From sequence record PZ452584.1: DNA of 64,000 nucleotides; one strand, written 5' to 3'. Of this stretch, positions 1-10,826 are shown one piece after another. The notes under the pieces were generated by a model. It ran no database searches. It saw nothing but the letters and a program-made list of their open reading frames with translations, and was not told the DNA's origin. Made by a program: the position numbers and the translations under genes. Origin of the DNA: a phage. Numbering within the stretch: the stretch's first letter is position 1; every line of letters begins with the position of its first letter.

Positions 1-1434
1 AATTCGTGCCTTTTCACCTTCACTAAATGAAGCATAACTAAAATCTTCACGACCACGGGATTTAATTGTCTCATTAAATTCTTCATCTAATGTAAACACA
101 TAATCCGCTTCCATTATTTTAAGATAATGGTTAATCTGCTTATTAAATAATGGAATGTACTTTTTAATAATAGCACCTTTAATACCAGAATCTTTGAGCA
201 TATCAGTCAAAATTCCTCGGTGGTATTTTTCCATTACTAAATTAGTTTTTGTCTTAACAATTTTATCAAGTTCTTCTTGAAGCAGTGCTATTTCATCAGC
301 ATGGTCAATAAACTCAGAAGATGCTTTTTCTATAGCTGCTTTAACTTTTTTAGCTTTATCTACCGTCGTGATTAGAGATTGCTTTTTATTGCGAATATCA
401 TTTGCCAACGACTGCTGGGTTTTAATATTATCTCGGTATTCATCAACAAGAACTTTTAAATTATCACGATGTGTTGAAAGCTGTTCAAACGAATGCGTAC
501 ATTCAGAAACTTTATCTTTAATTTTAGAAACAACTTTATCACCGGAACTTAATTGTGACAGACAGGTTGGACATAATCCGCCTTCGTGATACATATTAAT
601 GACTTTATTATACGAGTCAATTTTTGATTTAATTAAAACTGCTTCTTGACCGATTTTATTAAATGCATCAGTCGGGTCTTCATCCAAAACAATATTAACT
701 AATCTTTCATTAGCTTCTTCTATTTCCGATTTTAGCGTTCTAGCTTCTTTTGCCAAATCATCATACATATTTTGCAGACGAGTAAGATTGTCACCCGTTA
801 ATTTTTTCTGGCGTTCAACGTTATCATTATATATTTTAATTTGTTGGATAATACTATCTTTTTTAACATCAAGCACTTGGTTTTGTGAATTTAATTCACG
901 TATTAGTGCTTTATTAAGCTTATCCATTTCAGCTAATGTTCCTACCTCAAGCAGGTCTTCCACAAGCTTTCTTCGTGCAGGGGTCGACAAACCCATGAAA
1001 GGGGTATACCCTGCTGTACCAAGGACAACAATCTGCTTGAAACTGGCATATGACATTCCGATAAGCTGTTCAAATTCTGCTTGGAAATCTTTACTGCTGG
1101 CAGATTCATTAAGACGTGTACCGTTAACGGTGATTTCGAAAACGTTTGGTTTTTGTCCTCTTTTGATATAGTACTTTTTCTCATCATATTCCATCCACAG
1201 TTCAACTAAAAGTTCTTTCTTATTTGTGCTGTTTATTAATTGACCTTTCTTTACATCACGAAATGGCTTGCCAAAAAGCCCAAATGTGATGGCTTCTAAC
1301 ATAGTAGACTTACCACCGCCATTTCGTCCAGTAATAAGAGTTTTTTGAACCTTATCTAATTGAATGTCAACTCCATTTTGACCAACTGACATTATATTTT
1401 TATATTTTACTCTATTAAGTTTAAATGATTTCAT
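1..1434 (-). CDS. 46: Recombination nuclease subunit gp46 (Rad50/SbcC-like ATPase); 3' end cut by window edge
   Basis: Minus-strand ATG at 1432-1434 gives MKSFKLNRVKYKNIMSVGQNGVDIQLDKVQKTLITGRNGGGKST (Walker A); no complete ORF in this frame appears in the track, consistent with it running off the window; lies downstream of gene 47 as in T4. Confidence 0.85.
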   Translation of the reverse strand, partial: MKSFKLNRVKYKNIMSVGQNGVDIQLDKVQKTLITGRNGGGKSTMLEAITFGLFGKPFRDVKKGQLINSTNKKELLVELWMEYDEKKYYIKRGQKPNVFEITVNGTRLNESASSKDFQAEFEQLIGMSYASFKQIVVLGTAGYTPFMGLSTPARRKLVEDLLEVGTLAEMDKLNKALIRELNSQNQVLDVKKDSIIQQIKIYNDNVERQKKLTGDNLTRLQNMYDDLAKEARTLKSEIEEANERLVNIVLDEDPTDAFNKIGQEAVLIKSKIDSYNKVINMYHEGGLCPTCLSQLSSGDKVVSKIKDKVSECTHSFEQLSTHRDNLKVLVDEYRDNIKTQQSLANDIRNKKQSLITTVDKAKKVKAAIEKASSEFIDHADEIALLQEELDKIVKTKTNLVMEKYHRGILTDMLKDSGIKGAIIKKYIPLFNKQINHYLKIMEADYVFTLDEEFNETIKSRGREDFSYASFSEGEKARI

Positions 1435-1449
1435 TTTGTATCCAATTGT

Positions 1450-2304
1450 TCACAATGAAGAAAATTCTTTAACTAAAGCCTGTAATGAAGCCTCTATTGG
1501 ATATCCATTCTTAACTAACATTTTCCTAAACATCACATGTTTAGGACGATTATATGATATCCACAATTCATACAATTTATCTTTATTATCCCAATGATAG
1601 CCTTTTCGTCGAGATGCTATATGAGCTTTTCTAATCTCCGGATTTTTCCAACTAGCAGCTACTGAATTTGATATAGCTATTTTATATTCAGGTTTTGATA
1701 AAGCAGCACGAACAGCCTTTTGGTGTTTAATTTTATTTTCTTCGTTATTAAACCATTCCCTTGAAGCCATTGAAATTTTTTGTTTTGTTTTAAAATTATT
1801 TAATCTTTCTTTGTTATCTTTCCTATTTTTTGCTACTGAAAAATATTTTAATGCCCTTTCTCTAGCAGCATTTCTATTTTGCGGATTTGAATAATATTGT
1901 TGAAGCCTTTTTGATATTGTGTCACTTACATCTTGTTTTATAAAACTATATTCAGCAGCTATTAAATCAACTTCGGCTAAAGATAAATTTTTATATGTTT
2001 TTCCTGACATCATTCTATTTAAAGCATTTAGCATTTTTCCATTTTTACCTTTTGCTAATAAGAAATGTGCTTTAAAATGATTAAAATGACTTAAATTAAC
2101 TAAATTCCATGTAGATTTTAAATATTCAGGAAATATTGATTTAGGAAGCACGTGATGTGCTTCCGTTTTACCTGGAGTTTTAACAGTTGAATTCATAGAA
2201 ATAAAATTAATGTAAGACTTGGCGTCTTCTTCACTCAACGCTAATTTTTCAACTAATTCCTTTATTAAAAATTCATCATTAATGTCAAGTTTAAAATTCT
2301 TCAC
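1450..2304 (-). mobile_element. Free-standing HNH homing endonuclease gene (Mob-like), copy 1
   Basis: 284-aa ORF with GKTEAHHVLPKSIFPEY...NLVNLSHFNHFKAH (His-His...Asn...His pattern) and basic C-terminal repeats; paralog of ORF 9987-10826; first codon in the track frame is GTG overlapping the upstream stop. Confidence 0.6.
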
Positions 2305-2564
2305 AAAAGATTCCTTTTAATGTATCTTTTAGACCATTCTATCATATCATCATAATCTAAAAAGTATTCATCAAATTCAGCCATGCAAACAACGCCTTGT
2401 GCTGCTTTTGATGTGATATAAATTATTCCAACATATCTAGAATCTTCTTCGGTATAATCAATGTTTGCTATGAATTCATCATTGATGTCAAATGTCGAAA
2501 ACTTCACAGTATGCATCCTTAATACAAGATACAGCCATATCTCGTAATGATTTAGGTGTGTCAT
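2301..2564 (-). CDS. Hypothetical protein (46.x position); contains FDINDEF...EED segment resembling the N-terminus of the adjacent HNH ORF
   Basis: Track ORF; true start probably internal (MHTVKF...); 77-nt overlap with the next ORF. Confidence 0.35.
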   Translation of the reverse strand: MTHLNHYEIWLYLVLRMHTVKFSTFDINDEFIANIDYTEEDSRYVGIIYITSKAAQGVVCMAEFDEYFLDYDDMIEWSKRYIKRNLL

Positions 2565-2751
2565 TATCTAAAATGTTGAAGTTAAAAGATACAGCCCAGT
2601 CAGTGCAGACCGTAACCTTTTTAATACAATTATCTTCAACCTCTAGCGGTTCAAACCAATATTCAATAATTTCTTTATGCCCAATATCATCTTTTACTTC
2701 GCATTCAAAATGCTGACTCATCATAACATTTTTAAATTCATCAAAAGTCAT
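2488..2751 (-). CDS. Hypothetical protein (46.x position)
   Basis: Track ORF between gene 47 and the HNH ORF; possibly one gene with 2301-2564 split at a T-run. Confidence 0.35.
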   Translation of the reverse strand: MTFDEFKNVMMSQHFECEVKDDIGHKEIIEYWFEPLEVEDNCIKKVTVCTDWAVSFNFNILDNDTPKSLRDMAVSCIKDAYCEVFDI

Positions 2752-3767
2752 TGTGTTGCCTCTACATATAACTGATTTGCATATTGAATAAGTGCTTCAC
2801 GGTCAGAATCAGTGATGTCTGGAATTGCATTAATGTATTCTTCCATCAACGTCTGAAGAGATTGAACTTCAACTTCTTCACTGTCATCTGACTCGACAGA
2901 GTTATCAATCTTTGACACAACTCGTAATGAATGCACAACTTTTTCTAGTTCAGATTCGAACTTCGTCAGATTTTTGTCTACTTCAGTTACTATAACACGT
3001 ACTGATAGATTTGTAAAATCTTTATAGTCAATTTTTCCTTTAAATGGATAATGAATTCTACGATGCCAGGTAGTATTGTTTGGAATAAATTCCATTCGTT
3101 CTGTTTCTGTATCAAACATCCAGAACCCGCGAGGGTCATTCTCGTCACCTGCAGTTAGTGTCCATGGTGTCCCAATATATCTGACGTTAGCAGCCTCAGA
3201 GATAGTATGGAAGTGACCAGACCACACCTCTTTATAAGTCTTAAGGAAATCAGGTTCAAGACCATGAGATTTCATTCCTTTATAAAAATAAAATCCATTC
3301 AGTTCCCAGTGACCAACACAAAAAGAAGCAGAAGAAGTTTTTATGTGCTCGAGAATTTCACCAGTATTTTCTTCACACATCCAAGGAATTAAATCAATTA
3401 AACATCCGTCAAAATCTACTGTAGTAGGCTTATCATATACTTTAACATTAGGATATTTAGCCAAAAGCTCAGTAGAGGCATTTGGATGCATTACATTTTT
3501 GTAGTGGAGATCGTGATTTCCTACAATAGTATGTAATGTGATTCCAGCGTCATCAAGCATTTGAACTATTTCACGGGCAAACTCCATAGTTTTATGTGTG
3601 ATTGCTTTTCGCACATCAAAAATATCACCATATTGAATCCATACAGTAATTCCATTTTTCTTAGAATATTCTATCGCTTGCTTAATTCCATCAATTTGAA
3701 TACCGCGAATCCACTCATCATCAGCTTTAACGCCTAAATGCCAATCACCCGAGTTTAGTATTTTCAT
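2748..3767 (-). CDS. 47: Recombination nuclease subunit gp47 (Mre11/SbcD-like metallophosphoesterase)
   Basis: 339 aa; N-terminus MKILNSGDWHLG and GNHD motif typical of calcineurin-like nucleases; position between agt and 46. Confidence 0.9.
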   Translation of the reverse strand: MKILNSGDWHLGVKADDEWIRGIQIDGIKQAIEYSKKNGITVWIQYGDIFDVRKAITHKTMEFAREIVQMLDDAGITLHTIVGNHDLHYKNVMHPNASTELLAKYPNVKVYDKPTTVDFDGCLIDLIPWMCEENTGEILEHIKTSSASFCVGHWELNGFYFYKGMKSHGLEPDFLKTYKEVWSGHFHTISEAANVRYIGTPWTLTAGDENDPRGFWMFDTETERMEFIPNNTTWHRRIHYPFKGKIDYKDFTNLSVRVIVTEVDKNLTKFESELEKVVHSLRVVSKIDNSVESDDSEEVEVQSLQTLMEEYINAIPDITDSDREALIQYANQLYVEATQ

Positions 3768-4377
3768 GGTGTCTTTTCCATCCTAATTTAGCTGCTTTTG
3801 AAACTAGTTCTTTAATTTTTCCTTTTGTCCATTCAGGACCAGGAGGTTCATGACATAACATTTGCTTAACTCCGTTATTATACCATTTTTTACCTTTATT
3901 ATGTGATGAAGCTTTAAATTTATTTGACCTTCCTTTTACATAACCTTCTGGAATATAAGGCAAAAAGGCAGATTTTCCTGTTAATGGATCATGTGAATGT
4001 ATATTTCCTTTACAATTATGAGAACCATATAATGGATGATTTTGTCCTTTATTATCTCTTCCAAATGAACCTTTTGGAGCAGCATATGACATATTAAAGA
4101 ATAATGGATTTTTAACTGCATCATGCAATCGTTGATAATATAACTCGCATTTAATAGCTTCTTCACGCGTATCAAATTCAGCTAAAATGCATGAATCAAA
4201 TAAGTGAGGATTATCTGAAAGCTCTTTATTATAAATTTTCTTATACTTTTTAGATAAAACTGAACCATGATATCCAGCTAAATGCCTATCTAAAGACGTA
4301 GATCCAATATAAAAAGGAGGAAGTTTATCTCCACTATATATATTGTTAAATAAGTTATATATTTTTTCATATATCAA
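3745..4377 (-). mobile_element. GIY-YIG-type (Seg-like) homing endonuclease gene; start region ambiguous
   Basis: N-terminus (L)IYEKIYNLFNNIYSGDKLPPFYIGSTS...R...E...N fits GIY-YIG order; track frame begins at TTG, the nearby ATG is in another frame across an A6 run. Confidence 0.45.
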
Positions 4378-4546
4378 GAACCGTCATTGAAATGCAAAAT
4401 AAAATTATTGAAATAAACCCATCTGGTGTGCTAAAGAACCCAATCCAACATGCTTTAGTGAATAGATAAAATGCAAGAAAAAGTATCACATATCCAAGAA
4501 ATATCATTATATCAAACTCCGTATAAAGCTAAAGGGCCGAAGCCCT

Positions 4547-5815: not shown

Positions 5816-6007
5816 CTATCCGCATAATACACCATACAAAGGCTCATTAGAGCTTCTAAATTTTATGCGCTTATATGTTATAGTTCCTTCTGCTTTAGCT
5901 TTATCATGAGACTCTTTAAAGCGTCTCATCATTTCCTCTTTAGAGGAACGAATTTTATTATAATCTATTTCAGAAGTCTGGTGTTCATCTTTCACAGTTG
6001 CCACCAT
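5816..6007 (-). CDS. Hypothetical small protein
   Basis: Track ORF, same strand and compact spacing as flanking early genes. Confidence 0.3.
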   Translation of the reverse strand: MVATVKDEHQTSEIDYNKIRSSKEEMMRRFKESHDKAKAEGTITYKRIKFRSSNEPLYGVLCG

Positions 6008-6198
6008 TTTTTGACTTGATAAGAATCAACCCACACTTTCATATTAGGGTCTGCTCTTACAATAGGAGGATTAACTTCTTTAATTGAACTATCATGGTAT
6101 TCTTTTTCAGAAATTTTCACACAAAGATGACCATTCAAAGATTCAGTAAATCCTGCATTAATTTTAAGACGCTTGAATTTTACGTGTGTAAGCATCAA
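5992..6198 (-). CDS. Hypothetical small protein
   Basis: Track ORF in agt-55 interval. Confidence 0.3.
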   Translation of the reverse strand: MMLTHVKFKRLKINAGFTESLNGHLCVKISEKEYHDSSIKEVNPPIVRADPNMKVWVDSYQVKKWWQL

Positions 6199-6481
6199 TC
6201 ATATCCTCAATTTGCGATCTAGTAGTCTTCCAAAGAATACTAATGAGTTCATCGTTATATGGCTGTTTTAGAATATCCCGACTTTTCTTGATAGCATATT
6301 CGTATTGAGCAAAATTATTATTTTCAGCTGCGATCTGAGCGTGCTTATAAAGACGATTCAGTTCGCGTTTGTTTTTAGACAATAACTTGTTTGCTTTTCT
6401 TTCTGCTTCAAGACGGTTCTTTTCTTCAATAGAAGAAATAAGCTTTTCCACTTCATCATTAATTTCGGGTTTATCAGTCAT
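6164..6481 (-). CDS. Hypothetical protein
   Basis: 105-aa ORF, charged helical composition. Confidence 0.4.
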   Translation of the reverse strand: MTDKPEINDEVEKLISSIEEKNRLEAERKANKLLSKNKRELNRLYKHAQIAAENNNFAQYEYAIKKSRDILKQPYNDELISILWKTTRSQIEDMIDAYTRKIQAS

Positions 6482-6482
6482 A

Positions 6483-6701
6483 TTATTTCTCTAATATAAA
6501 ATAAAAATCATCATCTGTTAAATGATACCGATAGTTTAATTCTACACCATTAGATTTAAAAGCGGTATCATACGGATTTTCTGGATCAATATCAATGTCA
6601 AGAGCTAAAACTTCCCTGAGATACATTTTAAGTAAATAGGGAATAGCTTCAACTTCAGGTATTTCTTCCAAGAATCCGGAGAGGTTAATCGTTAGCCTCA
6701 T
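6483..6701 (-). CDS. Hypothetical small protein
   Basis: Track ORF directly downstream of gene 55. Confidence 0.35.
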
Positions 6702-9526: not shown

Positions 9527-9997
9527 TTAATCATGTTTCCACACCCCATCGGTATTTGACCAAAGTCGCTGATTATCTGATCCTCGCCACAGCTTTTTGG
9601 TCGGAAGATTTTTCTCATACTTCCCATCAATAATAACATCAACATATTTAAGCATTTCTAGTTGTTTAATATCTTCAAACTTATATCCTGTCCACAACCA
9701 AATGCTTTTATTGGGATAAAGATTTTTTACTGTTTGAACAATGCAATGAATAACATCTCGATTGTCAGGATAAAGAGGGTCACCTCCGGTTATAGTTAAT
9801 CCTTCTATATAATCATTATTCAAACATTCAATTAATTGTTCTAGTGTTTCACCAGTGAATGGAATACCATTTCTAGCATTCCATGTTGATTTATTATAAC
9901 ACCCTTCGCATTTATGCAAACAACCTGTAACGAAAAGAACTGTCCTGCATCCAGGACCATTAACAAAGCAGCACGGGTATATTCTGTCATAATTCAT
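9527..9997 (-). CDS. nrdG: Anaerobic ribonucleotide reductase activating protein (radical SAM)
   Basis: MNYDRIYPCCFVNGPGCRTVLFVTGCLHKCEGCYN: CxxxCxxC cluster, 156 aa. Confidence 0.9.
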   Translation of the reverse strand: MNYDRIYPCCFVNGPGCRTVLFVTGCLHKCEGCYNKSTWNARNGIPFTGETLEQLIECLNNDYIEGLTITGGDPLYPDNRDVIHCIVQTVKNLYPNKSIWLWTGYKFEDIKQLEMLKYVDVIIDGKYEKNLPTKKLWRGSDNQRLWSNTDGVWKHD

Positions 9998-10826
9998 TTA
10001 TATATTTCCAATTATAGCCTTCAACACTTTTACGTTCGCCATTTAAACATTTTAAAATATTTCCTTTGCTAGAAATATTAAAATATTTTGCTGCGTCTGG
10101 TATATAATTAAATGTTTTTAAAAGAACACCATCTTTATATGCGCCAAATAAATTAAGAGTATATTTTTCTCGAAGACGCTGATGTTTCCTTTTCATAACC
10201 TCAGGATTTGCATACGCCAACTTCAATGAATTTCTGTGTTTTTCTTTTACTTCAGGTTTTTGCATTGCTAACTTAGTTAGCCTGGAAATTTTATTTCTAA
10301 CTTCGTCAGTTTTCATTGCATTTGACAAATTTAATAAAGTTTTATTTCTAACTTCAGGTTTTTGCATTGCTAACTTAGTTAGTTCTCTATGTCTTTTTCT
10401 AAAATCGTCATCCTTCCATATATTTTTCGATAATTTTGACATAGAGCGGTGAAATAATTCCTTTTCACTGGAATACAATTTAAAAATTTCATCCAATTCA
10501 TCCGCATTAAATCTATCGGTATTCGAGTTTATCATTCTATGAAAGGCATAACACATTTTACTATTGCTTGTTTTAGCTAAATAGTAATGAGCTAACGCAT
10601 GGTCATAATATGACAAATTAACAATATTCCATTTATCTGTTTTATATTCAGGAAATATAGATTTGGGAAGCACGTGATGTGCTTCCGTTTTTCCTTTTAT
10701 TTTAGGATTATTATAATTTTTTGTTATCAAATCAACATATGACAATAGTAAATCATTATTTTCTTCAAATATTAAAGCTAATTTATCATTCACAAAATCG
10801 CAAGGATAAAATCTATCATAATTCAT
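9987..10826 (-). mobile_element. Free-standing HNH homing endonuclease gene (Mob-like), copy 2, inserted between nrdD and nrdG
   Basis: 279 aa; GKTEAHHVLPKSIFPEY motif shared with ORF 1450-2304; first 13 codons (MNYDRFYPCDFVN) duplicate the nrdG N-terminus; perfect 32-bp tandem repeat inside. Confidence 0.65.

Follow-up and report, generated by a model that had tools for sequence, protein, structure and literature searches.

A predicted MobD-like HNH homing endonuclease gene at the 46.1/46 boundary of a T2/T6-like phage, opening with the first codons of gene 46

Introduction

This work concerns a stretch of 64,000 nucleotides of phage DNA (sequence record PZ452584.1; hereafter the window), which comes from a T2/T6-like Tequatrovirus (99% identical across 2.2 kb to many such phages), and in particular an open reading frame (ORF) of 284 residues located at 1450-2304, between genes 46.1 and 46. 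This ORF, hereafter the HNH gene, is probably a free-standing, MobD-like homing-endonuclease cassette belonging to the T4 Mob family, with a function and a history that we infer from comparison with other phages. It begins with the GTG and the first six codons of gene 46, and gene 46 starts again, with a slightly different head, a few nucleotides after the end of the HNH gene.

Several ways in which endonuclease genes settle beside or inside a host gene are known. In intronless homing, of which SegF and SegG are examples, a free-standing endonuclease gene is transferred together with part of the gene next to it, which is co-converted and recoded (the Seg enzymes being of the GIY-YIG type), and in fungal mitochondria endonuclease ORFs are fused in frame to the host gene, with a duplicated gene end. 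MobA and Aeh1 mobE are inserted inside coding sequence, where the extra sequence that they bring preserves the function of the host gene and abolishes the target; MobA reportedly goes with the gene 60 bypass cassette, and mobE of Aeh1 is said to split nrdA. In T4, MobE (encoded between nrdA and nrdB) is promoterless, with an ATG overlapping the nrdA stop; in phages without MobE, it nicks the downstream nrdB at nt 122-126, the flanks are co-converted, and the carrier is protected by a nearby polymorphic region. The targets of MobB, MobC and MobD, as well as the activity of MobD, are listed as unknown. Our literature search found no paper on the HNH gene described here, or on the duplication of 5' codons by Mob genes, and the string 'duplicat' is absent from the text of the Edgell review.

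Results

An 870-bp block between codons 6 and 7 of gene 46

All features of the window described here lie on the minus strand. In T4, the stop of 46.1 overlaps the GTG of gene 46, the sequence reading ...AAAAGGAATCTTTTGTGAAGAATTTTAAACTT up to the boundary and AATAGAGTAAAATAT from it. When aligned with T4, the window is identical up to CTT, and the match resumes at AATAGAG after 870 bp. The block missing from T4 (1417-2286) falls exactly between codons 6 and 7 of the T4 gene 46, with a boundary that is ambiguous within the 9-nt direct repeats (TTTAAACTT) flanking it. The HNH ORF therefore opens with gene 46's own initiation region and six codons, namely the captured resident head GTGAAGAATTTTAAACTT (MKNFKL, 2287-2304), which is identical to T4 at 18/18 nt and the first 17 nt of which are identical in all six empty-site Tequatroviruses compared (T4, PST, JEP6, JoYop, pSs-1 and Sf24). 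In six HNH-less Tequatroviruses, GTGAAGAATTTTAAACT directly follows 46.1. The start of the HNH gene is thus linked to the original Shine-Dalgarno and GTG of gene 46 and keeps the overlap with 46.1, its GTG sharing the TGA of the upstream small ORF as GTGA, as a preliminary description made from the sequence had stated.

At the 3' end of the block, the TGA of the HNH gene (1450-1452) is followed by a 15-nt spacer (ACAATTGGATACAAA, 1435-1449), containing a GGA as putative Shine-Dalgarno-like element, and then by the ATG of a regenerated gene 46 head, ATGAAATCATTTAAACTT (MKSFKL, 1417-1434), the first 15 nt of which are those of the RB69 gene 46 start. Gene 46 (1-1434, cut by the window edge), a SbcC/Rad50-like recombination nuclease subunit according to the RB51 and T4 annotations, remains intact, MKSFKL replacing MKNFKL (N3S). 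The resemblance between the two heads, already pointed out in the preliminary description, amounts to 13 identical positions out of 18, with the second head beginning 15 nt past the stop of the HNH gene. The pattern RTGAARNNNTTTAAACTT occurs in the 64 kb only at these two starts, and none of 100 shuffles gave two matches.

The encoded protein

The protein matches PHROG 655 ('homing endonuclease') over residues 1-282 (E 7.8e-45), as well as PHROG 12434 ('HNH endonuclease', E 4.4e-15), and a tblastn comparison with T4 mobD gives 30% identity over 83% of the query (residues 47-281, E 2e-11). Its catalytic motif, TEAHHVLPKS...WNLVNLSHFNHFKAH (residues 47-80; 2065-2166), contains the HH pair, the Asn and the metal-binding His/Asn of HNH enzymes; all six family members aligned, T4 MobD among them, have T47, H50, H51, P54, N67, L71, H76 and H80, and the predicted secondary structure of the region is strand-strand-helix (residues 49-51, 68-70 and 73-84). 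The motif stretch also gives a weak match (E 0.39) to a group II intron maturase, in its HNH domain (6me0_C). The organization typical of the MobD-like clade, an N-terminal HNH followed by a lineage-specific C-terminal region, is found as well: T4 MobD and the protein share the N-terminal HH...N...H and the C-terminal RRKGYHW..LY..WI..N.PK..F...L...GYP. A word-indexed protein search gave 5 matches only. Based on these similarities, we assign ORF 1450-2304 to the MobD-like HNH homing endonucleases, with cleavage as a predicted activity.

Distribution and the variant tract of gene 46

The block shows a presence/absence polymorphism with precise boundaries beside a conserved gene. It is carried by 72 of about 560 related records, and it is absent from T4, PST, JEP6, JoYop, pSs-1 and Sf24, the flanks of which are otherwise 95-100% identical. 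Degenerate copies exist, being frameshifted or truncated in T2, RB51, G2133 and RB68. RefSeq records of T2, T6 and others label the ORF 'homing endonuclease', and the RB51 record leaves its frameshifted copy unannotated.

Next to the insertion, gene 46 carries a sharply bounded variant tract linked to the HNH gene (nt 10-66 of gene 46, 1369-1425; YKNIMSVGQ type, with K12/Q19). Within the 100 nt past the insertion point, identity to the window is at least 99% in 72 records, 95-99% in 70 and 80-90% in 370; in a control segment of 100 nt, located 200 nt further on, 384 records reach at least 99%. The pSs-1-type allele is present in about 360 records, and the window matches pSs-1 at 43/57 positions in gene 46 nt 9-66, then at 222/224. 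Two phages with HNH genes of their own (described below) behave alike: Melville matches its congener STML-198 at 35/57 and then 223/224 (its tract being closer to the T2/T4 type, 47/57), and F2 matches RB69 at 45/57 and then 218/224. Carriers from three genomic backgrounds diverge from HNH-less relatives only within nt 9-66 of gene 46. The tract encodes Y(K/S)NIMSVGQ in 5 of the 5 HNH-carrying genomes examined and YQNIMSVGG in 7 of 12 empty genomes, spanning five genera. No HNH-diagnostic single-nucleotide polymorphism was found in 1.4 kb of left flank; those found lie at gene 46 nt 0, 5-8, 62 and 63. Taken at the level of sequence, the presence/absence pattern, the frameshifts and the bounded gene 46 tract are classic signatures of homing.

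Gene 46.1 and the 19-nt identity

The preliminary description placed a small ORF (2301-2564) upstream of the HNH gene and read it as a decayed partial copy of the endonuclease. An ORF does lie there, with an extent that had been overestimated: the true gene is 46.1, 68 residues long, running from the GTG at 2507 (2301-2507; start codon 2505-2507), and the Pfam family DUF5487 covers residues 20-85 of the longer ORF. The notion of decay has to be abandoned for this gene, which is T4 gene 46.1 (DUF5487, 162.7 bits with a cut-off of 27, E 2.1e-48; PHROG 2327; T4 annotation; family alignment) and stands directly upstream of 46. T4 carries it unchanged in its 46-47 interval, with no HNH gene there and no endonuclease motif, an observation that undoes the claim for 46.1 and for that part of the description only. 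Homologs of 46.1 adjoin gene 46, with no HNH gene at that place, in Mosigvirus, Karamvirus, Dhakavirus, Tegunavirus and Gelderlandvirus (identified in RB69, RZH, QL01, fHe-Yen9 and S16), and hhalign found no N-terminal alignment of 46.1 with the HNH family (probability 0.1, E 0.53). In the DUF5487 alignment, the DINDEF of T4 aligns without gaps at the N(I/L)GDGW position of the family, and hence looks native to 46.1.

The resemblance to the HNH N-terminus on which that claim had been based is nevertheless genuine, and it holds at the DNA level. The 19-nt stretch TTGACATTAATGATGAATT (2270-2288; HNH codons 6-12, LDINDEF) matches codons 6-12 of T4 46.1 at 19/19 and the window's own copy, TTGACATCAATGATGAATT (2473-2491), at 18/19, this being the sole such pair within the window. 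The best local alignment of 46.1 with the HNH block is in register from both start codons, with 29/35 identities for T4 46.1 and 28/35 for the window's 46.1 (a score that none of 500 shuffles reached). Since 46.1 is a genuine conserved gene, lacks profile similarity to HNH proteins and aligns gaplessly through DINDEF, we read the identity as a capture by the HNH gene: the likelier direction, as far as the sequences tell, is that the HNH gene picked up codons 7-12 of 46.1, and the 19 nt would be most simply explained by an HNH gene once fused to the 46.1 start, as its homolog in F2 still is.

Some public starts in this region seem to have been miscalled. The 46.1 of S16 (locus 297-503) is annotated from an internal ATG, likely an error, its full DUF5487 ORF beginning at a GTG that overlaps the gene 47 stop, and gene 46 of Sf24 (locus 1704-1746) is annotated with a start 42 nt past the conserved GTG, again a likely error. 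Annotators should beware of mis-called starts for 46, 46.1 and the HNH ORF.

Related genes with the same architecture

A second insertion of the same kind is found in the window between nrdD and nrdG (9987-10826). As the preliminary description proposed, the HNH gene is paralogous to this nrdG-associated endonuclease (35.6% identity over 233 residues, E 7e-28). In RB69, the nrdD/nrdG junction is empty; the window is identical to it through the end of nrdD and the first 40 nt of nrdG, and then continues into the HNH body. The first 39 nt (13 codons) of the paralog are identical to the RB69 nrdG start at 39/39, and the regenerated nrdG head downstream has diverged from it (30/39). The earlier suggestion of two insertions with one architecture, and so of a recurrent pattern, is supported by two empty-site references, 18/18 for the T4 gene 46 start and 39/39 for the RB69 nrdG start. 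Unlike the HNH gene, the paralog has a C-terminus resembling NUMOD (Pfam I-HmuI_NUMOD-like, E 2e-4). The ATG of the regenerated nrdG (9527-9997) is overlapped by the final codons of the paralog (INEL*), and T4 MobC ends in the same way (KDEL*); this nrdG encodes C10, where T4 and RB69 have D10.

Two further HNH lineages abut gene 46 in other phages. The F2 protein (42% identical) starts with 22 nt (7 codons, MTKTDYE) of an RB69-type 46.1 and replaces the remainder of that gene, homology with RB69 resuming at the gene 46 start. In Salmonella phage Melville, where the protein is 43% identical, the HNH ATG and the stop of gene 47 overlap. The F2 and Melville proteins share 55% identity, so that the mutual identities among the three lineages span 42-55%. 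This points to a deep clade of MobD-like genes that, on the sequence evidence, keeps to the 5' end of gene 46, with every member using a resident start codon. More distant homologs (30% identical) occur in fPS-2 (341-2337) and Phi_KR8 after a nucleoside triphosphate pyrophosphohydrolase gene, with an ATG inside the last codons of the upstream gene (MDIN...); in fPS-2, a second homing endonuclease gene lies directly upstream of the pyrophosphohydrolase gene.

The catalytic-motif codons of the HNH gene also contain a perfect 8-bp hairpin, GGAAGCAC-ATCAC-GTGCTTCC (2144-2164), encoding EAHHVLP (dG -13.6 kcal/mol, z -5.75, 0/200 shuffles). It is identical in the nrdG-site paralog and absent from the F2, Melville, fPS-2, mobD and mobC homologs; a 51-nt core is identical between the paralogs at 48/51, the genes being elsewhere about 55% identical at the DNA level. 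The hairpin may reflect gene conversion between the paralogs, or may be a regulatory stem like the internal terminator of mobE.

Neighbouring genes

The order on the minus strand is gene 47 (2748-3767), gene 46.2 (2488-2751; T4_Y03C family, Pfam PF25721 E 2.6e-43, given for context), 46.1, the HNH ORF and gene 46. A seg-like GIY-YIG ORF (3745-4377; PHROG 10820 E 5e-91, with a weak Pfam GIY-YIG match) is located in the overlap of 47.1 and 47, with junctions at ~4367-4380 and 3745-3767. T4 reads GATATATGAAAATTTTAAATTTAGGT at this junction; the window keeps GATATATGAAAA and then diverges, and gene 47 restarts after the ORF as ATGAAAATACTAAACTCGGGT, with codons 3-6 recoded and L6S. The logic of start duplication is that of the two HNH genes. 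The 5' part of gene 47 (window ~3500-3767, where our left-flank alignment has its first ~300 nt, at a distance of ~1.1-1.4 kb upstream from the GTG of gene 46) exists in two haplotypes, ~87-90% and 95-99% identical to the window, independently of HNH presence: T4 and JEP6 group with the window, and RB51 and G2133 do not. The mosaic may have a second boundary here, perhaps connected with the seg-like gene. In RB51 (locus 5951-6664), a mobB-like HNH gene on the opposite strand abuts the 3' end of gene 46, which in some T2-like phages thus has endonuclease genes on both sides.

Discussion

A possible course of events

The HNH gene, presumably promoterless, would be co-transcribed with 47-46.2-46.1-46, as we found no own-promoter or late-promoter (TATAAATA) signal above chance in 1200-2900. 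Neither translation start showed a regulatory RNA structure (z 0.26 and 0.36), and low-level translation would come from coupling to 46.1 at the GTGA overlap. By analogy with T4 MobE, the enzyme would nick or cut HNH-less gene 46 alleles within the first ~70 nt, the best-guess target being the conserved YQNIMSVGG-coding stretch (gene 46 nt ~34-57), and recombinational repair from a co-infecting HNH-carrying genome would transfer the cassette and a short tract beside it. The carrier would be immune because its site is split or recoded by the new head and the K12/Q19 tract. At an earlier stage, the HNH gene may have been fused to a T4-type 46.1 start, the presumed source of its codons 7-12. It would then have reached its present site, probably by in-register microhomology between two similar starts (GTGAAG...TTT), GTGAAGAATTTTAAACTT and GTGAAGTTTTCGACATTT being identical at 12/18 positions (a hand count on the local alignment), and priming or recombination between starts in register would automatically keep the reading frame. 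The 9-nt repeats would also offer a route to precise loss, regenerating the exact T4 sequence.

Several points weigh against this account. The target, the cleavage and the mobility of the HNH protein are all inferred. The Pfam models HNH, HNH_3 and HNH_5 give no match to the protein even at E 10, and no NCBIfam HNH model matches it; T4 MobD is also under the Pfam HNH threshold (18.1 bits vs 21.4), and membership is accordingly based on the motif and on Mob homology. The donor predicted for the earlier stage, 46.1(1-12)::HNH (MKFSTFDINDEFL...), was not found by tblastn of the phage collection, where all 73 copies align from residue 6, which corresponds to the present junction only, and scans for exact patterns, two in IMG/VR and one in metagenome contigs, gave no matches, the T2-type sequence being likewise missing from them. 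About one fifth of the sampled copies are disrupted, and the element may be largely decaying. The K12/Q19 tract is also present in HNH-less T4, PST, JEP6 and JoYop, and (with other codons) in QL01, so that it may be a hitch-hiking flank instead of an immunity allele. Finally, amid rampant recombination, the HNH-carrying genomes could simply be one lineage by descent.

Alternative histories

The order of events could be the reverse of an insertion into a T4-type site, with the T2-type arrangement being the older one and the 'empty' T4-type site a scar left by deletion of the HNH gene between the TTTAAACTT repeats. The resident GTGAAGAAT head would then have remained joined to the HNH-linked tract, and the YQNIMSVGG alleles would be the never-invaded state. 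We regard this as a serious contender, although somewhat short of an even chance. Deletion between the 9-nt repeats does give the exact T4 sequence; T4, PST and JEP6 share the nt 10-61 tract with HNH-carrying phages; the other tract is found in ~360 Tequatrovirus records and in five other genera; and the HNH-linked tract accompanies three HNH lineages which are just 42-55% identical. We do not rate it higher because insertion into a T4-type recipient produces the same pair of sequences and because QL01, without an HNH gene, has K12/Q19, showing that these residues can occur independently. Both models can hold together, as phases in a cycle of invasion, decay and loss. Less probable, in our view, is that the element is now an immobile relic with an inactive nuclease, inherited vertically in the T2/T6-like lineage and spread by ordinary recombination, the tract merely hitch-hiking. 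Such a history would fit the frameshifted or truncated copies of T2, RB51, RB68 and G2133, and also the one identical left junction of all 73 copies, which implies a single origin. Nevertheless, most sampled copies (the window's included) retain an intact 284-aa ORF with all HNH residues, carriers differ in gene 47 haplotype (that of the window also occurring in the HNH-less T4 and JEP6), and vertical descent cannot explain why two further HNH lineages, in other genera, are accompanied by the sharp 57-nt tract as well.

Turning to the 19-nt identity, the upstream small ORF might be a decayed partial endonuclease copy and the locus a set of tandem remnants of repeated HNH insertions or, in a weaker form, just the first 12 codons of the T4-type 46.1 might be an HNH scar. 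The identity in register from both start codons agrees with this, as do the MDIN start of the fPS-2 homolog and the start of the F2 gene at the exact position of the 46.1 start relative to the end of 46.2. We consider it unlikely, given that DUF5487 membership is clear (E 2e-48) and conserved beside gene 46 in HNH-less genera, that the hhalign probability against the HNH family is 0.1 and DINDEF aligns gaplessly with N(I/L)GDGW, and that the MDIN of fPS-2 overlaps the C-terminal codons and stop of its upstream gene; Pfam, the cross-genus alignment and hhalign together rule out the whole of 46.1 as a decayed HNH gene. Chance matching between short motifs made of AT-rich, low-complexity codons, a doubt voiced from the outset and a natural one in an AT-rich genome, deserves practically no weight. 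The 18/18 and 39/39 identities are to independent empty-site references, the motif pairs are unique in the 64 kb, and the shuffles (0/100 for two matches, 0/500 for the alignment score) complete the exclusion of such an origin.

Comparison with known systems

T4 MobD (encoded between mobD.1 and nrdC.11) is the closest relative of the HNH gene among those characterised by name. It overlaps both neighbours, the upstream stop with its ATG and the downstream start with its last codons; however, it occupies another locus and shares at most ATGAA with its neighbour's start, with no capture of several codons. MobE is the functional model, its polymorphic immunity region being paralleled by our variant tract, but it is distant in sequence, no in-frame capture of host codons has been described for it, and its activity was established by experiment, whereas that of the HNH protein is a prediction. 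MobC follows the same nrdD/nrdG slot logic as the nrdG paralog of the window: each starts at an ATG overlapping the stop of nrdD and is followed by a re-headed nrdG. MobC starts with MNYDRIY (nrdG-like codons), compared with 13 codons in the paralog, and it is of a different HNH subtype (Pfam HNH 27.6 bits), unrelated to the paralog; codon capture by MobC is ambiguous, because Mob proteins natively start MNY..IY.

The splitting of Aeh1 nrdA is also described in PMC3045599. The MobA and Aeh1 insertions divide the host into two polypeptides, whereas the insertion near the 5' end of gene 46 merely re-heads the gene. The fungal mitochondrial cases duplicate a gene terminus, as here, but at 3' ends and not at 5' ends.

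Implications

The HNH gene of the window is, judging by its relatives, an uncharacterised Mob-family cassette, and its way of capturing a start and replacing a head recurs in the same window (in the nrdG-site HNH gene and in the seg-like gene at 47.1/47). As a tentative generalization, somewhat less probable to us than not, MobD-like endonucleases could act as 'gene-head replacement cassettes', made of an HNH ORF with a portable start, a Shine-Dalgarno and a ~60-nt recoded immunity tract. If this were true, the 5' end of T4 gene 46 (K12/Q19) would be the scar of a cassette excised via 9-bp direct repeats, the 5' end of the HNH gene would be a serial record of its sites (46 in codons 1-6, then 46.1 in codons 7-12), and the YQNIMSVGG-coding stretch would be a homing site for which at least three HNH lineages compete in several genera. 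The T4 reference sequence itself may bear the scar.

The known picture of homing is left unchanged by this locus, which adds a clean example of a phage element that is in itself ordinary. Among the mobile elements of the T-even phages, Mob-type HNH endonucleases are the least understood, and for a MobD-like enzyme there would now be a concrete prediction, which places its target within the first ~70 nt of gene 46 and makes K12/Q19 the immunity allele. Such a history would account for the hypervariable patch at the start of gene 46 in hundreds of sequenced Tequatroviruses, and it would show how translationally coupled junctions can be colonised while sparing a recombination gene, the resident start being taken and a new one supplied.

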